A stretch of DNA of 55,981 nucleotides from NCBI GenBank assembly GCA_009781275.1, contig WQYK01000001.1:1-55981 (forward strand), given 5' to 3'. Source of the stretch: Bacteroidales bacterium (GTDB lineage Bacteria; Bacteroidota; Bacteroidia; Bacteroidales; UBA932). The notes beneath the pieces are model-generated. The model was not told where the DNA came from and did not search any database. It saw nothing but the letters and a program-made list of their open reading frames with translations. Of the stretch, positions 16,597-55,046 are shown in pieces. A program made the position numbers and the translations under genes. Numbering within the stretch: position 1 is the first letter of the stretch; every line of letters starts with the position of its first letter.

Positions 16597-17931
16597 ATGG
16601 ATAAAATCGTTATACTTGGAGGCGGAGAGAGCGGCATAGGAGCTGCTGTTCTGGCAAAGAAAAAGGGCTTTGAAGTCTTTCTCTCCGATATGGGGATGCT
16701 TCAGGAGTATGCCAAAGGGGTTCTGGCAGAGCACGCCATTGCCTTTGAAGAGGGGCGCCACACTCCGGAGCATATCCTGGATGCCGTAGAGGTGATCAAA
16801 AGCCCGGGAATTCCCGACACGGCGCCCATGGTAGAGAAGATTATCCACAGGGGGATCCCTGTTATCTCAGAAATCGAGTTTGCGGGCCGTTTTGACAATG
16901 CCAAAAAAATCTGTGTAACAGGGAGCAATGGCAAAACCACCACCACATCGCTCATCTACTTTTTGCTCAAAAATGCAGGGTTGAATGTGGGTTTGGCCGG
17001 AAATATTGGTCAAAGTTACGCCTATCAGGTTGCAACCTGTCAACACGATATATACGTTTTGGAACTCAGTAGTTTTCAGTTGGACAACATGTACGACTTC
17101 AAAGCCGACTTGGCCATCTTACTCAACATCACTCCCGATCATTTAGACCGATATGACCACGACATGCAAAAGTATGTCAACGCTAAATTCAGGATTACCC
17201 AAAACATGAGTCCCGACGACTATTTCATCTTTTGTTCCGATGACGAAGTAACCGTTGAACAACTCAAAAAGATTGTCATCCAAGCACAAAAATTACCCTT
17301 TAGCCAAACGCACCCGATAGAGCAGGGCGCTTGTATTGAGGATGGAGAGATCTCCTCAAGGTATGGCCCCGATGAGTTCAGAATCTTTATCAACGAATTG
17401 GCATTACAAGGCAAGCACAATATATACAACTCCATGGCAGCAGCCAATACAGGGCAGGTGATGAATATACGGCACGAGCTGATACGCCAGTGCCTGATGA
17501 CCTTTAAAGGAGTCGAACACAGATTAGAGCAAGTGGGAACGATTCGGGGTGTGCTCTACATTAACGACTCAAAAGCCACCAACGTAAACTCTGCATGGTA
17601 TGCGCTCGAAAGCATGAAGACGCCCGTAGTATGGATTGCAGGGGGAACCGATAAAGGAAACGATTACAGCATCCTCCATGCATTGGTCAAAGAAAAGGTC
17701 AAAGCGCTGATCTGCTTAGGCGCCGATAATATCAAGCTCTACCAAAACTTTGCAGACAAAGTTCCTGTAATCACAGAAGTACGCTCCGCTGAACAAGCAG
17801 TACAAACGGCGTATCAATGGGCCCAGCCGGGAGATACAGTGTTGCTCTCGCCTGCCTGCGCCAGTTTTGACCTCTTTAAGAATTATGAAGACAGGGGGAT
17901 GCAATTTAAAGAAGCCTTTAGAAAACTGTAA
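16597..17931 (+). CDS. murD: UDP-N-acetylmuramoylalanine--D-glutamate ligase
   Basis: ATG 16597 gives MDKIVILGGGESGIGAA. VTGSNGKTTT P-loop. The ORF-track start at 16537 lies inside mraY. Confidence 0.95.
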   Translation: MDKIVILGGGESGIGAAVLAKKKGFEVFLSDMGMLQEYAKGVLAEHAIAFEEGRHTPEHILDAVEVIKSPGIPDTAPMVEKIIHRGIPVISEIEFAGRFDNAKKICVTGSNGKTTTTSLIYFLLKNAGLNVGLAGNIGQSYAYQVATCQHDIYVLELSSFQLDNMYDFKADLAILLNITPDHLDRYDHDMQKYVNAKFRITQNMSPDDYFIFCSDDEVTVEQLKKIVIQAQKLPFSQTHPIEQGACIEDGEISSRYGPDEFRIFINELALQGKHNIYNSMAAANTGQVMNIRHELIRQCLMTFKGVEHRLEQVGTIRGVLYINDSKATNVNSAWYALESMKTPVVWIAGGTDKGNDYSILHALVKEKVKALICLGADNIKLYQNFADKVPVITEVRSAEQAVQTAYQWAQPGDTVLLSPACASFDLFKNYEDRGMQFKEAFRKL

Positions 17932-47450: not shown

Positions 47451-50400
47451 TCAGACCACGAAGATAGGGATATTTTGGATATACCACACAAACCCCTCCA
47501 CCTCTTTGTATCCCATTTGTTGTAAGGCTTGTACATATTTATCCATCTGATGCTGATGAGCGGGATGAGGCTGTCCGAATTTATAGTCGATCACCACAAC
47601 GCGCCCCTCTTTCTCCATGACGCGGTCAGGACGGATGTGATGGCTGTCGCAGGCGGGCAGCAAAATAGAGGCTTCGTTGCGGACTGTCCAGCTACCGTCA
47701 AACCATTCCAATGCTTGCGGTTGGGCCAAAGCGTTTCTAATCACCTGCTCATAATGACACTGTTCCTCCCTGTCGGGCGCCAGCACCCCCTCCTTTACCA
47801 ACGTTTCTATGGCTGTGCCGATCTCATCAAGCGTGTTGATGCGCGACAGCAAACTATGAAGGATCACGCCTCGCTTACGGGGTGATATCTCTTCTGACAC
47901 AAGCGATTCGTCGGCAAGGCGGGTGTGCAGGCGGAGGTCGGAAACAGATGATACATATTGAGAGAGCGGAGTGGCAGACTCAGCAGTTTCGTGCGATTTT
48001 TGCTTGGGACTGACAAAAGCGCCAAAGGTAAGGCGATCAGTAGTCGCTCCTTGTGGAAAAAGCACCTCTTTGAGTGTAGACGCTAAGTTTGGGGTGGTGC
48101 TTGCTGTTTGGGGCAAAAAGAGGTAGAGTTCATCCTTAGCACGGGTAGCCGCCACATAAAAAACGTTCAGTTGATCCACAAGATACTGCATCTTCTCGTA
48201 GTAGTAATCATGCGCAAAAAGACTCTGCTTCATGTCGGAACTCCAACGCTGCGGCACAAACGGCAGTTGATTGAGCGGCGCCTCCTGGGGCTGTGCCCAC
48301 ACAATGGGCAACTGCCTGGACATATACTCCAATCCCCAATCGCAAAAAGGAATCACAACCACCGGATACTCCAATCCCTTTGCTTTGTGAATCGTCAACA
48401 GGTTGATGGCTATCTCTGAACACTCTAACTGGAGCGTGACTTTATGTCCATTTTGATTCCACCACCGGACAAAAGAGAAGACATCGCCTCCATGGTTTTT
48501 GGAGAAAGTGAGGATTTGGTTGTGCAGCTCCTGAATATAGGCAAAACAGCTGTGCCGCTCCGTCCACTTAAGTACTCTGATCAGCTCTTCAAAGGCTTGG
48601 GGAAGGGCGTGGAATTGCAACGCTCCGCTCCACAGCGCATCGGGACATGAGGTACCTAACTGTTTGCTGAGGTGCTCAATCAGCCGGTTGTTTAATGCAT
48701 CATGCGGACGCAGGAACCGCTTAAAGATCGCTACAATCAACTGCACTTCGGGCGAGTGGCTCAAAAAGAGGGTGTCGGGAGATAACACTTCAAAACAGTA
48801 GCCATGAGCCTCGGGGCGCTCTTTAAACGACATCAGGGCTGTAGCGATTTGTTGGCCCTGTTCTTTGGTCCGCACCAAAATGGCAATGTCCGAGGCACAG
48901 AAACCACGCTTCTGCAGCTCTATCATTAAATGAGGCAGACGCTCTAAAATTTGCGCTTTGGCGCTCTGCTCCCGTGTCGGTTCCACAGAAGAGATGGCAA
49001 CAAACCCTCCGCTCTCTTTTTGAGGAGGGGCGACTTGTTGACGTACATCGTCGTATGCCTTTACGATCTCCCGGGGGATGGCTTGAAGTTCCGGAGAAGC
49101 TTCGGATGGCAAATCGGAAACAAAGTCTTGATGCACTGTTTGGATCAGTCGCTCAAAAAGAGTTCCCACTGTCTCTGTCAGCACCTCCCTGCTCCGCCAG
49201 TTTACGTTGAGCGTTTTGTCGATAAACTTATGGGGAGATAGATCTCCATAAATCCCACCTCCCAAAATACGCCAATCGCTGTTGCGCCACCGGTAGATCG
49301 ACTGTTTGACGTCTCCCACCACCATCGAGACGCCTCCTTGAGACAATCCATTAAATATGAGCGGCAACATCACATTCCATTGCATCACGGAAGTGTCCTG
49401 AAACTCGTCCAATAAAAAATCGGAGTAGCGGCAACCCATTCGCTCCAGTATAAAAGGGGCATCGCTTTGTGAGGTTAAGGCGCTCAGGAGCAAGAGCGTT
49501 TGACTTAGGTGCACTGCGTTTTCTTTAGAAAGGAGGGCACGAACGTGGCGTTGAATATCTGCGGCCAGCCCCATTTGCGGGAGCCATTTTAACGCCGACC
49601 TGACGGCAAACCAGGCAGGCGCATGGTTATTGTAATACTCTATGCACTGACGCATCAGACTGTGAAGCGGATGGTATATGGCCTCAATTTGCTCTGCCTT
49701 TGGGTCATTTTTGGTCATCCACTCGGCCGGATCGTCCAGCGCTTTGAGTACTGAATCCGTAGGCTTATAAGCGCCCTCCATAACCTTATCAAAGTAGCGC
49801 ATGAATGAGCTTGCCTTTCTTCTAAAATCGGTAGTACTTAAACCGTTTTTTGATAAAAAAGTCAATACCTCAGTAGCGTGATCCTCCATCTGTTGCCTAA
49901 ATTGCTTCTCCAACGTGCACAGCTCCTGCATGTAGGACAACAAAAACGCCTTGTCGCAAAGCTGATTGGCAAATGCGACGCCAAAGGAGCTAAAGCGCTC
50001 GTTAAACACCTGCTTGCCAACCTCTTCTAACGCCTTCTGCACATTCCAGGGCTTTCCCTCCCCAATCCGTTCCGACAAAATGTCCCCAATCCATTTTCTG
50101 TTTTGGGGATGGGTCGACACTTCATCCACCACTTGGTCAATGGCTTCCTGTAGCAAACGCTGACTGTTCAGCTCCACCGTATAGGCAGACGGTAGTCCCG
50201 CCTCCCAAATAAAAGAGCGCACAATGCGTTGAAAAAAAGCATCAATGGTGTAGACCGAGAACCGTCCATAGTCGTGCAGGATGGCACTGCGCAACGCACA
50301 GGCGCGCCTCCTCAACTCCTCCTCCCCCATCCCCGCACACTCCTTTTCCAGACAAAACTCCCGCCTCAACCGCACACCCTGCTCATCGTCCGGCGGAAGG

Positions 50401-50588
50401 CTCAAGTCGTTCAAAAGACTGATTATACGCACCTTCATCTCCTCGGTCGCCTTGCGTGTAAAGGTCAGCGCCATTTGATGCAGGTACGCCGTGGGGGATT
50501 CCCTCCCCAACAGACGCCGCACAAACGCGCGGGTAAGCGTATGGGTTTTACCCGAACCGGCAGAGGCCCGGCAGACGGTGATGCTCAT
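47451..50588 (-). CDS. UvrD/Rep-type helicase fused to a PD-(D/E)XK nuclease (AddA/RecB-like)
   Basis: Walker A ASAGSGKTHTLT. DEFQDTS (Walker B / motif II). C-terminal nuclease motif RPDRVMEKEGRVVVIDYKFG. ATG 50588 is preferred because the TTG at 50597 lies inside a -7 box. Confidence 0.85.
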   Translation of the reverse strand: MSITVCRASAGSGKTHTLTRAFVRRLLGRESPTAYLHQMALTFTRKATEEMKVRIISLLNDLSLPPDDEQGVRLRREFCLEKECAGMGEEELRRRACALRSAILHDYGRFSVYTIDAFFQRIVRSFIWEAGLPSAYTVELNSQRLLQEAIDQVVDEVSTHPQNRKWIGDILSERIGEGKPWNVQKALEEVGKQVFNERFSSFGVAFANQLCDKAFLLSYMQELCTLEKQFRQQMEDHATEVLTFLSKNGLSTTDFRRKASSFMRYFDKVMEGAYKPTDSVLKALDDPAEWMTKNDPKAEQIEAIYHPLHSLMRQCIEYYNNHAPAWFAVRSALKWLPQMGLAADIQRHVRALLSKENAVHLSQTLLLLSALTSQSDAPFILERMGCRYSDFLLDEFQDTSVMQWNVMLPLIFNGLSQGGVSMVVGDVKQSIYRWRNSDWRILGGGIYGDLSPHKFIDKTLNVNWRSREVLTETVGTLFERLIQTVHQDFVSDLPSEASPELQAIPREIVKAYDDVRQQVAPPQKESGGFVAISSVEPTREQSAKAQILERLPHLMIELQKRGFCASDIAILVRTKEQGQQIATALMSFKERPEAHGYCFEVLSPDTLFLSHSPEVQLIVAIFKRFLRPHDALNNRLIEHLSKQLGTSCPDALWSGALQFHALPQAFEELIRVLKWTERHSCFAYIQELHNQILTFSKNHGGDVFSFVRWWNQNGHKVTLQLECSEIAINLLTIHKAKGLEYPVVVIPFCDWGLEYMSRQLPIVWAQPQEAPLNQLPFVPQRWSSDMKQSLFAHDYYYEKMQYLVDQLNVFYVAATRAKDELYLFLPQTASTTPNLASTLKEVLFPQGATTDRLTFGAFVSPKQKSHETAESATPLSQYVSSVSDLRLHTRLADESLVSEEISPRKRGVILHSLLSRINTLDEIGTAIETLVKEGVLAPDREEQCHYEQVIRNALAQPQALEWFDGSWTVRNEASILLPACDSHHIRPDRVMEKEGRVVVIDYKFGQPHPAHQHQMDKYVQALQQMGYKEVEGFVWYIQNIPIFVV

Positions 50589-50594
50589 GATGGA

Positions 50595-50602
50595 CAAAGT
50601 TA
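50595..50602 (-). promoter_or_regulatory. Candidate -7 box (TAACTTTG) 6 nt upstream of the helicase-nuclease ATG
   Basis: Exact TAnnTTTG match on the minus strand, in the 34-nt gap between the trpB2 stop (50623) and ATG 50588. Confidence 0.4.
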
Positions 50603-50622
50603 CACTTTATGTGCGTCTTTTG

Positions 50623-51984
50623 CTACGCCAATCGCTCCAATTTGCCTACATTTTCTTTGATTACCTCATCACTAAGTTCATAATTATACAGGTCGCCGGA
50701 CAGATAGGCGTCATAAGCGGTCATGTCAATCAATCCGTGTCCCGACAGGTTAAACAAAATGGTCTTTTGCTTTCCCTCCTCCTTAGCCTTAATCGCCTCC
50801 TGAATGGTGGCGGCAATAGCGTGGCACGACTCTGGCGCAGGAATGATGCCCTCGGTTTGTGAAAACAGAATGCCTGCCTTAAATGAATCGAGCTGTTTGA
50901 TGTCGACCGCCTCAATCAAGTTGTCTTTAAGCAACTGACTTGCAATCGTCCCTGCCCCGTGGTAACGCAACCCTCCCGCATGAATATGGGCGGGCGAAAA
51001 GTTGTGCCCCAGAGTAAACATGGGCAATAGCGGCGTATACCCCGCTTCATCTCCAAAGTCATACTCAAAGACGCCACGCGTCAGCTTGGGACAGGAGGCG
51101 GGTTCTGCCGCTACAAAGCGGGTATTTTTTTGCCCAGACAGCTTGTGGCGCAAAAAGGGAAATGAGATGCCGCCGAAATTGGAGCCTCCGCCAAAGCATG
51201 CCACCACCACATCGGGATAGTCGTCTGCCATCTCCATTTGTTTCTCTGCCTCTAAGCCTATCACCGTCTGGTGCATCATCACATGGTTGAGCACGCTGCC
51301 CAGCGTGTATTTGCAATTGGGCGTTTGCATCGCCAGCTCCACCGCTTCCGAAATGGCTGTGCCTAAGCTGCCCTGATAGTTGGGGTAGTCGGTCAGGATT
51401 TTCCGGCCCGCTTTGGTGGACATCGACGGCGACGGAATAACCAATGCGCCAAATGTTTGCATAATAGAGCGGCGATAGGGCTTTTGCTCGTAACTCACCT
51501 TTACCATGTACACCGCCAGCTCCAGGCCAAACGCTTTGGCAGCGTAAGACAAAGCTGCACCCCACTGTCCGGCGCCCGTTTCTGTGGTGATGTTGGTCAC
51601 CCCCTCCTTTTTGCAGTAGTAGGCTTGAGGAAGGGCAGAGTTGAGTTTGTGCGACCCCACAGGGCTTACACTCTCATTTTTAAAGTAGATGTGCGCAGGC
51701 GTATCCAACGCCTTTTCTAAGCCTGTGGCACGGACCAATGGTGTGGAGCGATAGTTTTTATAAAGCTCGCGCACCTCTTGCGGAATTTCGATAAACCGGT
51801 CGGTTTGGTTTAGCTCCTGATGACAGAGCTCTTGGGCAAAAAGCGGGTAGAGGTCTTGGGGTTGCAACGGTTGTTTGGTATCCGGGTGAAGCATGGGCAG
51901 CGGTTTGTTTTTCATGTCCGCCACAATGTTGTACCATGCGGTGGGGATTTGGGTTTCCGGGAGGAAGAGTCGTTTTGTGGTCAT
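50623..51984 (-). CDS. trpB: TrpB-like PLP-dependent enzyme (tryptophan synthase beta chain 2 type, TrpB2)
   Basis: ETQIPTAWYNIVADM N-terminus characteristic of TrpB2. PLP-lysine motif GSHKLNSA. TETGAGQWG, GGGSNFGG and HAGGLRYHG motifs. 453 aa. No trpA or other trp genes lie nearby. Confidence 0.93.
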   Translation of the reverse strand: MTTKRLFLPETQIPTAWYNIVADMKNKPLPMLHPDTKQPLQPQDLYPLFAQELCHQELNQTDRFIEIPQEVRELYKNYRSTPLVRATGLEKALDTPAHIYFKNESVSPVGSHKLNSALPQAYYCKKEGVTNITTETGAGQWGAALSYAAKAFGLELAVYMVKVSYEQKPYRRSIMQTFGALVIPSPSMSTKAGRKILTDYPNYQGSLGTAISEAVELAMQTPNCKYTLGSVLNHVMMHQTVIGLEAEKQMEMADDYPDVVVACFGGGSNFGGISFPFLRHKLSGQKNTRFVAAEPASCPKLTRGVFEYDFGDEAGYTPLLPMFTLGHNFSPAHIHAGGLRYHGAGTIASQLLKDNLIEAVDIKQLDSFKAGILFSQTEGIIPAPESCHAIAATIQEAIKAKEEGKQKTILFNLSGHGLIDMTAYDAYLSGDLYNYELSDEVIKENVGKLERLA

Positions 51985-52011
51985 GTTGTTTTGATTGATG
52001 ATTTATAAAAT

Positions 52012-52043
52012 AAAAAAACCGATGCTCTGGGGGTGAGCATCGG
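52012..52043 (-). terminator. Intrinsic terminator (candidate attenuator terminator, also able to stop prfB read-through)
   Basis: Minus-strand RNA CCGAUGCUC-ACCCCCA-GAGCAUCGG, a perfect 9-bp stem, followed directly by UUUUUUU. It ends 27 nt before the trpB2 ATG. Confidence 0.75.
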
Positions 52044-52085
52044 GGAATGGTTTGATGAAATATTTGGAGGGTTACTCCATAAGGG

Positions 52086-52160
52086 CTACATAAACAGGGC
52101 CGAAGTCACAACAGATTCTCTGCTGCGCCACCACCATTGTTGTATGTTTTGGTTCTTCAT
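52086..52160 (-). CDS. Candidate Trp leader peptide MKNQNIQQWWWRSRESVVTSALFM
   Basis: 24-codon ORF with three consecutive TGG codons (52136-52128). Its ATG is 18 nt downstream of an exact -7 box, and the ORF lies upstream of the terminator and trpB2. It is too short to appear in the ORF track. Confidence 0.6.
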   Translation of the reverse strand: MKNQNIQQWWWRSRESVVTSALFM

Positions 52161-52178
52161 GTGTGATCTTATCGAGGG

Positions 52179-52186
52179 CAAAGGTA
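52179..52186 (-). promoter_or_regulatory. Candidate -7 box (TACCTTTG) for the trp leader / trpB2
   Basis: Exact TAnnTTTG match on the minus strand, 10 nt after the prfB stop codon. A TTTG lies about 22 nt further upstream, inside the prfB 3' end. Confidence 0.5.
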
Positions 52187-52196
52187 ATATTTTTTT

Positions 52197-53277
52197 TTAA
52201 TTGTCCATCAAAAACCGTTTCATAAATTCGTTCAAATCGCCATCGAGTACCCCTTGCGTATCGGAAGTTTCATAACCCGTCCGCAAATCTTTGACCATTT
52301 TATAGGGATGCAGCACATAGCTTCTAATTTGGGAGCCCCACTCTATCTTCTTTTTAGAGCCCTCCAGCTCTGCCTGCTTTTCCCGTTTTTTCTGTAGCTC
52401 GATTTCATACAGATGCGACTTTAAAATCCGCAAAGCGTTTTGTCGGTTGTCCAACTGCGACCGCGTCTCGGTATTCTCTACCGTAATGCCGGTGGGAATG
52501 TGGCGCACGCGCACCCCCGTCTCCACCTTGTTTACATTTTGTCCGCCCGCGCCGCTCGACCTAAAGGTGTCCCACTCCAGGTCAGAAGGATTTACTTCAA
52601 TCTGAATCGTTTCGTCCACAGCGGGATAGACAAATACCGACGAGAAGGTCGTCTGGCGCTTCCCCTGAGCATTAAAGGGAGAGATGCGCACCAATCGATG
52701 CACGCCGTTCTCTGCCTTGAGAAATCCGTAAGCATAATCGCCTTCAAACTCAACGGTGCACGATTTGATGCCCGCCTCGTCTCCGTCCGTAATCTCGTAG
52801 GTGTGCACCTTGTATCCATTGCGCTCGCCCCAGCGGATATACATCCGCATCAACATCTGCGACCAGTCGTTGCTCTCGGTACCGCCCGCTCCGGAGTTGA
52901 TTTTAAGAATAGCGCCCAACTTGTCGGCCTCCTCGCCCAACATGTTGCGCATCTCCAAATCCTCAATCAACTGCAACGCCGTTTGGTACTGACGCTCCAA
53001 ATCAACATCAGCGCCCTCGTCCTCTTTGGAAAACTCGTAGAGCACCTCCAAATCGTCTAAAGCTCCAATAATAGTTTGATACGCTTCTACCCAATACTTT
53101 AGACTGGACGTTTGCTTCAAAAAGAGCTCTGCTGCTTTGGGGTCGTCCCAAAAGTCAGGCATCTGAGAGCGCTCGGTGGCGGCTTCTATTTCAACTACTT
53201 TGCCTTCGATGTCAAAGGCACCTCCTCAACGTGGACTCACGTTGTCGGAGCTCTTTTATTTGGTCAAGAGAGATCAT
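52197..53277 (-). CDS. prfB: Peptide chain release factor 2, requiring a programmed +1 ribosomal frameshift
   Basis: Frame 0: ATG 53277, MISLDQIKELRQRESTLRRCL, then in-frame TGA. Shifting +1 at CTT TGA C continues as DIEGKVVEIEAATERSQMPDFWDDP... into ORF 52197..53162. SPF (RISPFNAQ) and GGQ (SGAGGQNVN) motifs are present. Confidence 0.93.
53211..53226 (-). promoter_or_regulatory. RF2 autoregulatory +1 frameshift cassette AGGAGG-TGC-CTT-TGA-C
   Basis: Minus-strand AGGAGG (53226-53221), a 3-nt spacer, the slippery CTT (53217-53215), an in-frame TGA (53214-53212), then C (53211). Confidence 0.9.
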
Positions 53278-53301
53278 CCGGGATGTGGTTTAATACAAAA
53301 A

Positions 53302-53309
53302 CAAAGGTA
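53302..53309 (-). promoter_or_regulatory. Candidate -7 box (TACCTTTG) for prfB
   Basis: Exact TAnnTTTG match on the minus strand, with 24 nt between the box and ATG 53277. Confidence 0.5.
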
Positions 53310-53335
53310 AGAGAAATTTTTGAATAACAATTTCC

Positions 53336-53343
53336 TATTTTTG
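53336..53343 (+). promoter_or_regulatory. Candidate -7 box (TATTTTTG) for the CoADR-rhodanese gene
   Basis: Exact TAnnTTTG match, with 41 nt between the box and ATG 53385. Divergent from the prfB promoter. Confidence 0.45.
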
Positions 53344-53384
53344 CAAAATAAAAAGGAGCAAAAACCACCTTATTGTAAACAATC

Positions 53385-55046
53385 ATGAAACACCTCATCA
53401 TTGGCGGAGTGGCAGGAGGAGCCACCGCAGCGGCAAGAATCCGTAGAATGGACGAATTTGCAGAAATTATCATTTTTGAGAAAGGTAAATACATCTCGTT
53501 CGCCAATTGCGGATTGCCCTATTACATCGGGGGAATCATCGACGACAGGGCACGTCTTTTCCTGCAAACCCCCACCTCGTTTGCAAACCGGTATCAGGTT
53601 GATGTCCGGGTCGAAAACACGGTTCTGGGCATAGACACCACCCAAAAAACGGTCACTGTCCGCCGCAATGACGGCAGCGAATATGTAGAAACTTACGATA
53701 AGTTATTGCTCTCACCCGGAGCCTCACCTCTAAAACCGCCGTTAGAAGGAGTCGATCTGGAGGGCATATTCACCCTGCGTGACATACCGGACGCCGACCG
53801 CATCAAGAGATTCATCCAAACACGCAACGTTAAAAAAGCTGTCGTAGTGGGCGCCGGATTTATCGGCCTGGAAATGGCAGAAAACCTGCATCATACTGGA
53901 GCAGAAGTCTCCATTGTAGAGATGGCCGATCAGGTGATGGCGCCCGTCGATTTTTCGATCGCTTCACACGTACATCAACATCTGCTGCAAAAAGGAGTCA
54001 ATCTCTATTTAGAACAAACCGTCGAACGTTTTGAGCAAAGAGAGGGCAAAATCGACGTTTGCCTTAAAAGCGGCCTCACCATTCCTGCCGACATGGTGAT
54101 CCTCTCTATAGGCGTTCGTCCCCAAACCGCATTGGCCCAGACCGCTGACTTAAAAATCGGAGAAACCGGCGGTATATGGGTCAATGAATATTTAGAAACA
54201 TCTGCAAAAGATGTGTATGCCGTTGGCGACGCTATCCAATTTCCCCATCCCATCACGGGTAAACCATGGATGAACTATTTAGCCAACCCTGCCAACCGCC
54301 AGGGACGTCTGGTGGCCGACAATATGGTGCATGGCAATACCCAAGTATATGAAGGCTCCATAGGAACGGCCATTGCCAAAGTATTTGATTTGACAGTTGC
54401 CACAACGGGATTAGCCGCCAAAAAACTGAAACAGTTAAACATCCCCTATCAAAGCTCCCATACCCATTCGGGCAGCCACGCAGGATACTACCCTGGAAGT
54501 ACACAAATGAGCATCAAGTTGACATTTGACCCTCACAGCGGAAAGATCTACGGAGCGCAAGGCGTTGGATACGACGGCGTGGACAAGCGCATCGACCAGA
54601 TCGCCCTATTGATTAAACTGGGAGGAAGTGTGTACGACCTGACCAAAGTGGAACACTGTTATGCGCCCCCCTTCTCATCGGCAAAAGACCCCATTGCCAT
54701 AGCAGGATACGTGGCGCTCCAAATTGTAAACGGACGAATGCCTGTTGTCCATTGGAGGGAGATGCAGAGTACAAATCCCAATGAGGTAACCATTTTAGAT
54801 GTACGTACCGCCAAAGAGACGGCAGACGGAAAAGTGATTAATGGATCACTAAACATCCCATTAGAAGAGCTGCGCAAACATTTGGATGAAATCCCCAAAG
54901 ACAAACCTGTCTACATCTATTGCGCCATAGGATTGCGGGGTTATCTGGCACAACAAATAGTGACCCAACAGGGATTCTCCCGTGTGAAGAACCTCTCGGG
55001 CGGATATAGAACCTATTCCATAGCAACCGCTACATCACTTATTTAG
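53385..55046 (+). CDS. CoA-disulfide reductase / NADH-oxidase-family flavoprotein fused to a C-terminal rhodanese domain
   Basis: FAD motif IIGGVAGGATAAARIRR. Redox Cys in SFANCGLPYY. NAD motif VVGAGFIGLEMAE. C-terminal rhodanese active-site loop YCAIGLRGY. Confidence 0.88.
   Translation: MKHLIIGGVAGGATAAARIRRMDEFAEIIIFEKGKYISFANCGLPYYIGGIIDDRARLFLQTPTSFANRYQVDVRVENTVLGIDTTQKTVTVRRNDGSEYVETYDKLLLSPGASPLKPPLEGVDLEGIFTLRDIPDADRIKRFIQTRNVKKAVVVGAGFIGLEMAENLHHTGAEVSIVEMADQVMAPVDFSIASHVHQHLLQKGVNLYLEQTVERFEQREGKIDVCLKSGLTIPADMVILSIGVRPQTALAQTADLKIGETGGIWVNEYLETSAKDVYAVGDAIQFPHPITGKPWMNYLANPANRQGRLVADNMVHGNTQVYEGSIGTAIAKVFDLTVATTGLAAKKLKQLNIPYQSSHTHSGSHAGYYPGSTQMSIKLTFDPHSGKIYGAQGVGYDGVDKRIDQIALLIKLGGSVYDLTKVEHCYAPPFSSAKDPIAIAGYVALQIVNGRMPVVHWREMQSTNPNEVTILDVRTAKETADGKVINGSLNIPLEELRKHLDEIPKDKPVYIYCAIGLRGYLAQQIVTQQGFSRVKNLSGGYRTYSIATATSLI

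Follow-up and report, generated by a model that had tools for sequence, protein, structure and literature searches.

The window analyzed here comprised the whole 55,981-nt stretch of contig WQYK01000001.1 (assembly GCA_009781275.1) from a member of the Bacteroidales, and the element of interest was the leader of trpB2 on the minus strand. In profile searches, the trpB2 product matched NCBIfam NF009057 with 697 bits and TIGR01415 with 601 bits, and it was thus a full-length TrpB-like pyridoxal-phosphate (PLP) enzyme of the TrpB2 type. Profile searches found no further trp gene among its scanned neighbors, and the TrpB2 paralogue stands alone. Its upstream neighbor on the same strand was prfB, whose stop codon (52199-52197) was separated from the trpB2 ATG at 51984 by a gap of 212 nt. 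This gap contained a Bacteroidetes-type promoter element, a short open reading frame (ORF) with three consecutive tryptophan (Trp) codons, a set of alternative hairpins and an intrinsic terminator with a U tract (Table 1). The sequence-only reading of this DNA had taken these elements for a ribosome-mediated Trp attenuator of trpB2; its coordinates for the -7 box, the WWW ORF, a small hairpin, the terminator with U7 and the trpB2 ATG were all right on the minus strand. With a probability of about 85%, we consider that the trpB2 leader acts as a ribosome-mediated (leader-peptide) transcription attenuator, which ties trpB2 to the supply of charged tRNA-Trp.

Table 1. Features of the trpB2 leader and the two genes that flank it, in positions of the window.
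Feature	Position	Strand	Basis
prfB, release factor 2, post-frameshift part, neighbor upstream of trpB2	52197..53162	-	TIGR00020, 470 bits
-33-like TTTG element within the last prfB codons	52209..52212	-	read from sequence; putative assignment
Bacteroidetes-type -7 box TACCTTTG (TAnnTTTG)	52179..52186	-	sequence and conservation
Leader ORF MKNQNIQQWWWRSRESVVTSALFM, 24 codons plus UAG (52088-52086)	52086..52160	-	sequence, conservation
Three tandem Trp codons, regulatory codons 9-11	52128..52136	-	sequence; invariant in close relatives
P1 (1:2) hairpin, anti-antiterminator; Trp codons in the 5' arm, antiterminator strand in the 3' arm	52088..52147	-	folding, RNAalifold
Region 2, antiterminator 5' strands GUGACUUCGG (52109-52100) and GUUUAUG (52095-52089)	52089..52109	-	ribosome-masked folds, conservation
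Small conserved hairpin UGGAG-UAACC-CUCCA, inside the antiterminator fold	52065..52079	-	folding, RNAalifold
CAUCAAAC, pairs with GUUUAUG (middle helix of the antiterminator)	52050..52057	-	ribosome-masked folds
Intrinsic terminator, 9-bp stem 52043-52019, 7-nt loop, -14.7 kcal/mol, U7 52018-52012	52012..52043	-	folding, conservation
trpB2, putatively regulated gene, stand-alone TrpB-like PLP enzyme, 453 aa	50623..51984	-	NCBIfam NF009057 and TIGR01415

For comparison, 160 loci with close TrpB2 relatives were gathered from a genome collection and from metagenomes, which gave 161 loci including the window. The best 80 genomic TrpB2 relatives were nearly all labeled as Bacteroidales or other Bacteroidota, and a few carried labels of other phyla. 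The nearest relatives were two metagenome-assembled genomes (MAGs) of termite-gut Bacteroidales, L001 (92% identity) and L002 (90%), together with L081 (88%), which is a contig from a metagenome. The TTACCTTTGC of the -7 box was invariant in the window and in these three loci, and the TTTG of the -33-like element was aligned in all four close relatives. A strict TAnnTTTG was located 18-29 nt ahead of the leader start in 15 of the 19 leader loci, and three more had a relaxed match. Transcription would begin near 52173.

The leader ATG at 52160 was found 18 nt past the -7 box. The length and frame of the leader ORF were identical in L001 (which has a GTG start), L002 and L081 with zero indels, and the indels of the leader region were confined elsewhere. 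The window had four copies of the motif TGGTGGTGG (0.48 expected), of which the leader copy was the sole intergenic one; the other copies (at 16937, 49316, and 51201) were inside coding regions and were rejected as leaders. The leader peptides matched no family when compared with NCBIfam and Pfam. The leader ORF was not preceded by a Shine-Dalgarno sequence. Translation initiation in Bacteroidota is unusual and proceeds without Shine-Dalgarno pairing.

About 24 of the 161 trpB2 loci contained a short ORF with WWW, WW or WRW that started 146-195 nt upstream of trpB2. The sequence-only reading had proposed such a comparison of trpB2 upstream regions, and the Trp-codon run together with the terminator was conserved in several Bacteroidales lineages. 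The peptides differed between loci, and what they had in common was WWW(R/H), WW or WRW at the same relative place, as in MKAQSIQQWWWRSRDSVVGAALFM (L001, GTG start), MKIQYIQQWWWHSRKSVVRSTLLV (L002), and MKIQNIQQWWWRNGYSVVSTVLFM (L081), or among more distant relatives in MYVSTNIHSNFWWWHALLSEQ (L035), MNFTNSFFYWRWLSCYSKQ (L011), and MVNNLNSKQWWWRQSEIKVED (L072). Short ORFs with WWW were detected in 15 of 158 trpB2 upstream windows and, at the same loci, in 4 of 7334 control windows, which represented an enrichment of ~175-fold. In each of the 19 distinct leader loci examined, a hairpin of -15 to -30 kcal/mol with a T-rich tract behind it preceded trpB2 by 28-65 nt. The human-gut metagenome contigs L121, L128-L132, and L145 shared one and the same leader, MTHSAINKFWWWRSLLDKS, which was positioned ~124-181 nt upstream of trpB2. 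Among these, L132 was the one locus examined for a terminator, and it possessed a very strong one (-29.6 kcal/mol). The occurrence of the MTHSAINKFWWWRSLLDKS leader in human-gut assemblies indicated that the putative trpB2 attenuator is present in human-gut Bacteroidales too.

The leader was not linked to prfB. Only in the window and in L081 was prfB situated upstream of the leader; in L001, where prfB was found on the downstream side of trpB2, the leader and terminator preceded trpB2 all the same. In L011, L013, L041, L085, and L132, the nearest gene upstream of the leader was on the opposite strand. Since the leader persists without an upstream prfB and next to divergent upstream genes, the unit belongs to trpB2. 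There was no other terminator between prfB and trpB2, which means that prfB transcripts of this genome would be ended by the hairpin as well. The sequence-only reading had assigned it this second function, which is plausible here as an incidental extra role; it cannot be the main role, as the leader is kept where no prfB lies upstream.

The leader RNA was strongly structured, with a folding z of -3.7 relative to shuffled sequences. RNAalifold independently recovered P1, the hairpin at 52079-52065, and the terminator. The P1 fold had an energy of -24.5 kcal/mol, and 94.8% of its cells were paired in the four sequences, against 32-54% with the partners slid. A small hairpin, CAGCAGA-GAA-UCUGUUG, was located at 52125-52109 on the minus strand. 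For the antiterminator, 87.5% of cells were paired across the four relatives. For the terminator this value was 95.5%, with two compensatory pairs, and the slid-partner control for all three structures gave 25-54%. The stem of the hairpin at 52065-52079 was kept in all four relatives and its loop was variable; the TCATAAAACCA within the partner strand 52057-52050 was also conserved. At column 188, in the terminator, a change from U to G in L002 was accompanied by changes from A to C in both its antiterminator and terminator partners. The terminator (52043-52012) was the strongest terminator-like site within the scanned 4 kb. Its GC-rich stem was formed by the arms CCGATGCTC/GAGCATCGG, also given as CCGAUGCUC/GAGCAUCGG, and its U tract ended 27 nt before the trpB2 ATG.

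The leaders were then considered with a ribosome at different positions, by folding them as far as the 3' end of the terminator loop with the ribosome-covered RNA masked and with several footprint sizes. Without a ribosome, P1 (52147-52088) paired the Trp-codon region with 52109-52089, and the terminator arm was essentially free. When the A site was placed on the first, second or third UGG codon, P1 was blocked, and the terminator 5' arm had seven of its nine bases sequestered at all footprint sizes tried. In every stalled-ribosome fold, region 2 took as its partners 52043-52033 (CCGAUGCUCAC, in the terminator 5' arm) and 52057-52050, and the resulting helices, GUGACUUCGG:CCGAUGCUCAC and GUUUAUG:CAUCAAAC, flanked the conserved hairpin at 52079-52065. 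With the ribosome at the stop codon and all RNA masked up to its leading edge, the arm was nearly free. Sequestration amounted to -7.3 kcal/mol in the stalled state vs. -0.9 kcal/mol at the stop codon. When the upstream segment was dinucleotide-shuffled, it was -1.9 ± 1.8 kcal/mol, and the window had a z of -2.95. The same logic held in most of the 19 loci, with a mean z of -2.4. In the Paludibacter-type group, an antiterminator strand, AAACAAUGAGG, overlapped the leader stop codon and had GCCUGUUGUUU in the terminator as its partner (duplex z = -2.4 to -4.3).

When the stop-codon ribosome was given an explicit footprint and the RNA to its rear was left free, six of the nine arm bases paired with the Trp-codon region. 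In that fold, the Trp run GGUGGUGG (52136-52128) paired with CUCACCCCCA (52036-52028), which covers the end of the terminator 5' arm and the C-rich loop. The loop was also C-rich in L081 and L001, not in L002.

The folds of the minus strand thus contained the mutually exclusive structures that the sequence-only reading had suggested looking for, including an antiterminator with GUGACUUCGG. Its own candidate for the antiterminator strand, GAGAAUCUG (52120-52112), was not retained. This segment can be paired by hand with the terminator arm at 7 of 9 positions, but it was chosen in no fold, would lie partly under the stalled ribosome, and was less well kept in L001, L002, and L081; the segment 52109-52100 (GUGACUUCGG) was preferred. 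Mutually exclusive 1:2, 2:3, and 3:4 pairings, chosen by ribosome position as in the classical design, are accordingly what the folding models predicted. The conserved unit, its independence of prfB and the conservation of these exclusive structures all supported the proposal of a ribosome-mediated Trp attenuator.

Under this proposal, transcription would begin a few bases past TACCTTTG, and a ribosome would start on the 24-codon leader ORF. With ample Trp-tRNA, this ribosome would clear the three UGG codons and reach the UAG (52088-52086), covering part of region 2, and after its release at the UAG, P1 would re-form. In both cases the terminator 5' arm would be free, and the 9-bp hairpin with U7 would stop transcription 27 nt before trpB2. 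With Trp-tRNA in short supply, the ribosome would stall on UGG-UGG-UGG and keep the 5' arm of P1 open. Region 2 (GUGACUUCGG plus GUUUAUG) would then pair with CAUCAAAC and CCGAUGCUCAC, the terminator 5' arm would be captured before the 3' arm is synthesized, and RNA polymerase would enter trpB2. Without any ribosome, P1 would form and termination would be the default. Translation of the leader ORF, the response to Trp and a kinetic competition between the two folds are all presumed in this scheme.

A similar element has been known in this phylum since 2010, when the "Bacteroid-trp leader" (Rfam RF01692) was reported ahead of trpB and trpE, with "a loosely conserved hairpin" as its structure (Weinberg et al. 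2010, Genome Biol 11:R31, PMC2864571). The sequence-only reading was aware of no curated model for this lineage, which was wrong, although the existing model misses the window leader; since the Bacteroid-trp leader had already been described, the novelty implied there was overstated. In the published seed alignment, a UGG run is found in the 5' arm of a hairpin, for example in the Bacteroides leader MRTMLVNTYWWWRPLQLRQS (PMC2864571). The window leader resembled this family in belonging to the same phylum, in its place 5' of a Trp-synthesis gene, and in its short ORF with at least two tandem UGG codons at about codons 9-12 (three in the window). The UGG run was likewise located in a hairpin 5' arm followed by a terminator, and P1 and the terminator of the window fitted the SS_cons layout of the seed. 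There were also differences. The window gene is a stand-alone trpB2 paralogue, whereas in the one published case considered, F. psychrophilum, the element precedes the trp operon (PMC6414381), and the published seeds have a GGCYUGUC arm where the window group has CCGAUGCUC.

At its gathering score, the RF01692 model gave no match in the whole window or in 10 related leader loci and 10 other trpB2 loci. Nor did it match any of those 10 related trpB2 leader loci at E <= 10; none of these scans included a positive-control locus for the model. However, when a hidden Markov model (HMM) built from 30 RF01692 seed sequences was used with nhmmer, each of the 14 matches in ~1 Mb coincided exactly with a trpB2 leader, at E values between 0.003 and 7. 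The match in the window (52163-52088, minus strand; 12.5 bits, E = 0.11) was weak and may derive from the ATG, an A-rich stretch and the UGG run; its alignment began at the leader ATG, took in the Trp run and ended at the base of P1. A literature search on trpB2 in Bacteroidetes and on experimental trp attenuation in Bacteroides returned nothing past Weinberg 2010 and one passing mention, and it found no paper that links Bacteroidetes trpB2 to a Bacteroid-trp-type leader. The trpB2 leader is a well-supported new example of the switch described in Bacteroidetes in 2010, and not a new mechanism. It is best called a divergent Bacteroid-trp/trpL-type attenuator, which agrees with the family by description and falls outside it by model score.

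Compared with trpL of E. coli and other Proteobacteria (RF00513), the window leader followed the same logic, in which a promoter precedes a leader ORF with tandem Trp codons and alternative 1:2, 2:3, and 3:4 hairpins. In both, termination would be the default without translation, and the terminator is thermodynamically stronger than the antiterminator, hence the choice would be kinetic. In contrast to trpL, the window leader showed no sequence match to RF00513; two related leaders, L072 and L031, had sub-threshold matches of 22-23 bits vs. a gathering score of 41. Its promoter belonged to the Bacteroidetes -33/-7 class, and a Shine-Dalgarno sequence was absent from the leader. It had three Trp codons in a 24-codon ORF instead of two in 14, a longer distance from the Trp codons to the terminator (~85 nt), and a single salvage-type gene under its putative control instead of an operon with seven functions. 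The TRAP (mtrB) and T-box systems of Bacillota are comparable in their signal (Trp or uncharged tRNA-Trp) and in the terminator/antiterminator output. The T-box Rfam model had no match in 50000-54000 at E <= 10, and the window leader contained four scattered GAG/UAG triplets instead of the 9-11 regularly spaced ones of TRAP. The sensor in the window would be the translating ribosome, not a protein or a tRNA.

Several observations weighed against attenuation of this kind. The spacer between the -33-like element and the -7 box was 22 nt here vs. 18-19 nt in L001, L002, and L081. About 85% of the trpB2 loci had no leader, and these included the near relatives L004 (Symbiothrix) and L019. In the 4-kb scan (50000-54000) at E <= 10, neither RF01692 nor RF00513 (Trp_leader) matched the window leader. 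The covariation came from four related sequences and did not exceed the shuffle control, and the Stouffer statistic over the loci counted related loci as independent. A simple duplex test of region 2 against the terminator arm in the window alone was not significant (z = -0.48), in contrast to the fold-based sequestration test, and the window antiterminator was modest, with nine pairs and two interruptions. In addition, the full-length leader at equilibrium had a terminator probability of 0.93-0.99 in every ribosome state. This meant that the switch is not demonstrable by thermodynamics alone, and that antitermination must be kinetic, with the antiterminator forming first.

Three other explanations were considered. 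In the first, the leader ORF acts in another way, either by a TnaC-like arrest that senses free Trp or indole, or through a Rho-dependent or translational effect, and the hairpin is a constitutive partial terminator. TnaC of the tryptophanase operon is likewise a short Trp-containing leader peptide that controls downstream transcription through ribosome stalling; it senses free Trp via a specific peptide (conserved W12, D16, and C-terminal P24) and blocks Rho at a catabolic operon. The R or H after WWW in the peptides and an equilibrium fold that always favors the terminator would fit such an explanation, as would the unusual translation initiation of Bacteroidetes, where transcription-translation coupling is, to our knowledge, largely unexplored. 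However, the peptides of the trpB2 leaders were unconserved outside the Trp run, which argues against a specific arrest peptide, and trpB2 is biosynthetic, a gene that one would hardly expect to be induced by excess Trp. Nearly every leader locus examined had an intrinsic terminator with a U tract, which means that Rho is not needed, and an antiterminator dependent on ribosome position was predicted in most loci. We regard this explanation as unlikely.

The second is that the terminated leader of ~160 nt serves mainly as a trans-acting small RNA (sRNA) or encodes a functional small peptide, similar to rnTrpL/peTrpL of Sinorhizobium, and that control in cis is secondary. Attenuator-derived sRNAs and leader peptides with functions in trans are described for Sinorhizobium (PMC6614838 and PMC7298713), and the strong structure of the leader RNA (z = -3.7) would suit an sRNA. 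The element was always immediately 5' of trpB2, however, and its sequence diverged freely outside the Trp codons and the pairing regions; no complementarity to a target emerged, and no search aimed at it was made. A function in trans would also be compatible with the cis mechanism, and as the main role it appears still less probable than an arrest peptide or a Rho effect. Least probable of all, and largely refuted as far as the comparative data go, is that the hairpin is a plain prfB terminator and the WWW ORF a chance frame in the spacer: prfB does end 154 nt upstream on the same strand with no other terminator before trpB2, but the leader and terminator precede trpB2 in L001 and at loci with unrelated or divergent upstream genes, WWW ORFs are strongly enriched upstream of trpB2, and a conserved -7 box lies between prfB and the leader ORF.

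The genes around the leader showed further features. prfB contained a classical programmed +1 frameshift site (window 53211-53227, minus strand), in which an internal Shine-Dalgarno-like GAGGAGG (53227-53221) was followed by UGC CUU UGA C (53220-53211). Its frame-0 ORF, MISLDQIKELRQRESTLRRCL, comprised 21 codons (53277-53212, minus strand) and stopped at the frameshift UGA, and the +1 frame ran into an ORF of 321 codons. This use of a Shine-Dalgarno sequence stood out in a phylum that otherwise uses such pairing little. prfB also had its own TACCTTTG box at 53309-53302 on the minus strand. Downstream of trpB2, only ~35 nt and no terminator separated its stop codon from the ATG (50588-50586) of a gene for a 1048-aa RecB/AddA-like helicase, and a TAACTTTG box (50602-50595, minus strand) ended 6 nt ahead of that ATG. 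The helicase gene would be either co-transcribed with trpB2, hence also under the attenuator, or expressed from its own near-leaderless transcript. A RecB/AddA-like helicase was also found downstream of trpB2 in L002 and L081. Farther upstream, the Rfam model V_AS7 (Vibrio antisense RNA AS7) matched 53404-53572 on the minus strand below threshold, with 70.4 bits vs. a gathering score of 90 and E = 2e-12. It was antisense to the 5' end of a CoA-disulfide-reductase-like gene (53385-55046, plus strand), and most likely it reflected a conserved coding sequence rather than an RNA gene.

The leader was distributed patchily among the trpB2 loci. In Bacteroides and Parabacteroides, the trpB2 loci had no leader, and the -7 box was found directly before trpB2, as in L004 and L019. 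Decayed leaders were observed in three Paludibacter MAGs. In L005 (~2842-2940), the leader was reduced to MQLQWPVV with one Trp codon that overlapped the terminator arm; in L016 (~2790-2945), a GTG-start ORF had a single Trp codon; in L017 (~2870-2950), only M-I-stop was left, and the hairpin had no U tract. These patchy and decayed leaders suggested repeated loss or remodeling of the putative attenuator in some lineages. We lean, by a narrow preference, toward the view that the trpB2 leaders form a distinct Bacteroidota sub-family of Trp attenuators, which is missed by the current Rfam model, is dedicated to the stand-alone TrpB2, and was repeatedly gained, remodeled and lost across Bacteroidales. 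Such a sub-family would be intact in the lineage of the window, degenerate in some Paludibacter, and absent in Bacteroides and Parabacteroides.

The general understanding of attenuation is unchanged by the trpB2 leader. The blindness of RF01692 to a set of related leaders would mean, if the attenuator reading is right, that annotation pipelines under-call Trp attenuation; the human-gut MTHSAINKFWWWRSLLDKS leaders were counted in this set, though they were themselves outside the Rfam scans. The role of the TrpB2 paralogue has long been debated, and TrpB2 has reportedly been proposed to serve in indole salvage (Hettwer and Sterner 2002; Busch et al. 2014). An attenuator would tie TrpB2 to Trp starvation. 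If the trpB2 leaders are indeed a distinct sub-family, TrpB2 would be under direct control by Trp-tRNA starvation. The leader would also offer a clean, testable case of leader-peptide attenuation, which in Bacteroidota has so far only been predicted, and it would be regulatory evidence that TrpB2 makes tryptophan in vivo in these gut anaerobes, probably via indole salvage.

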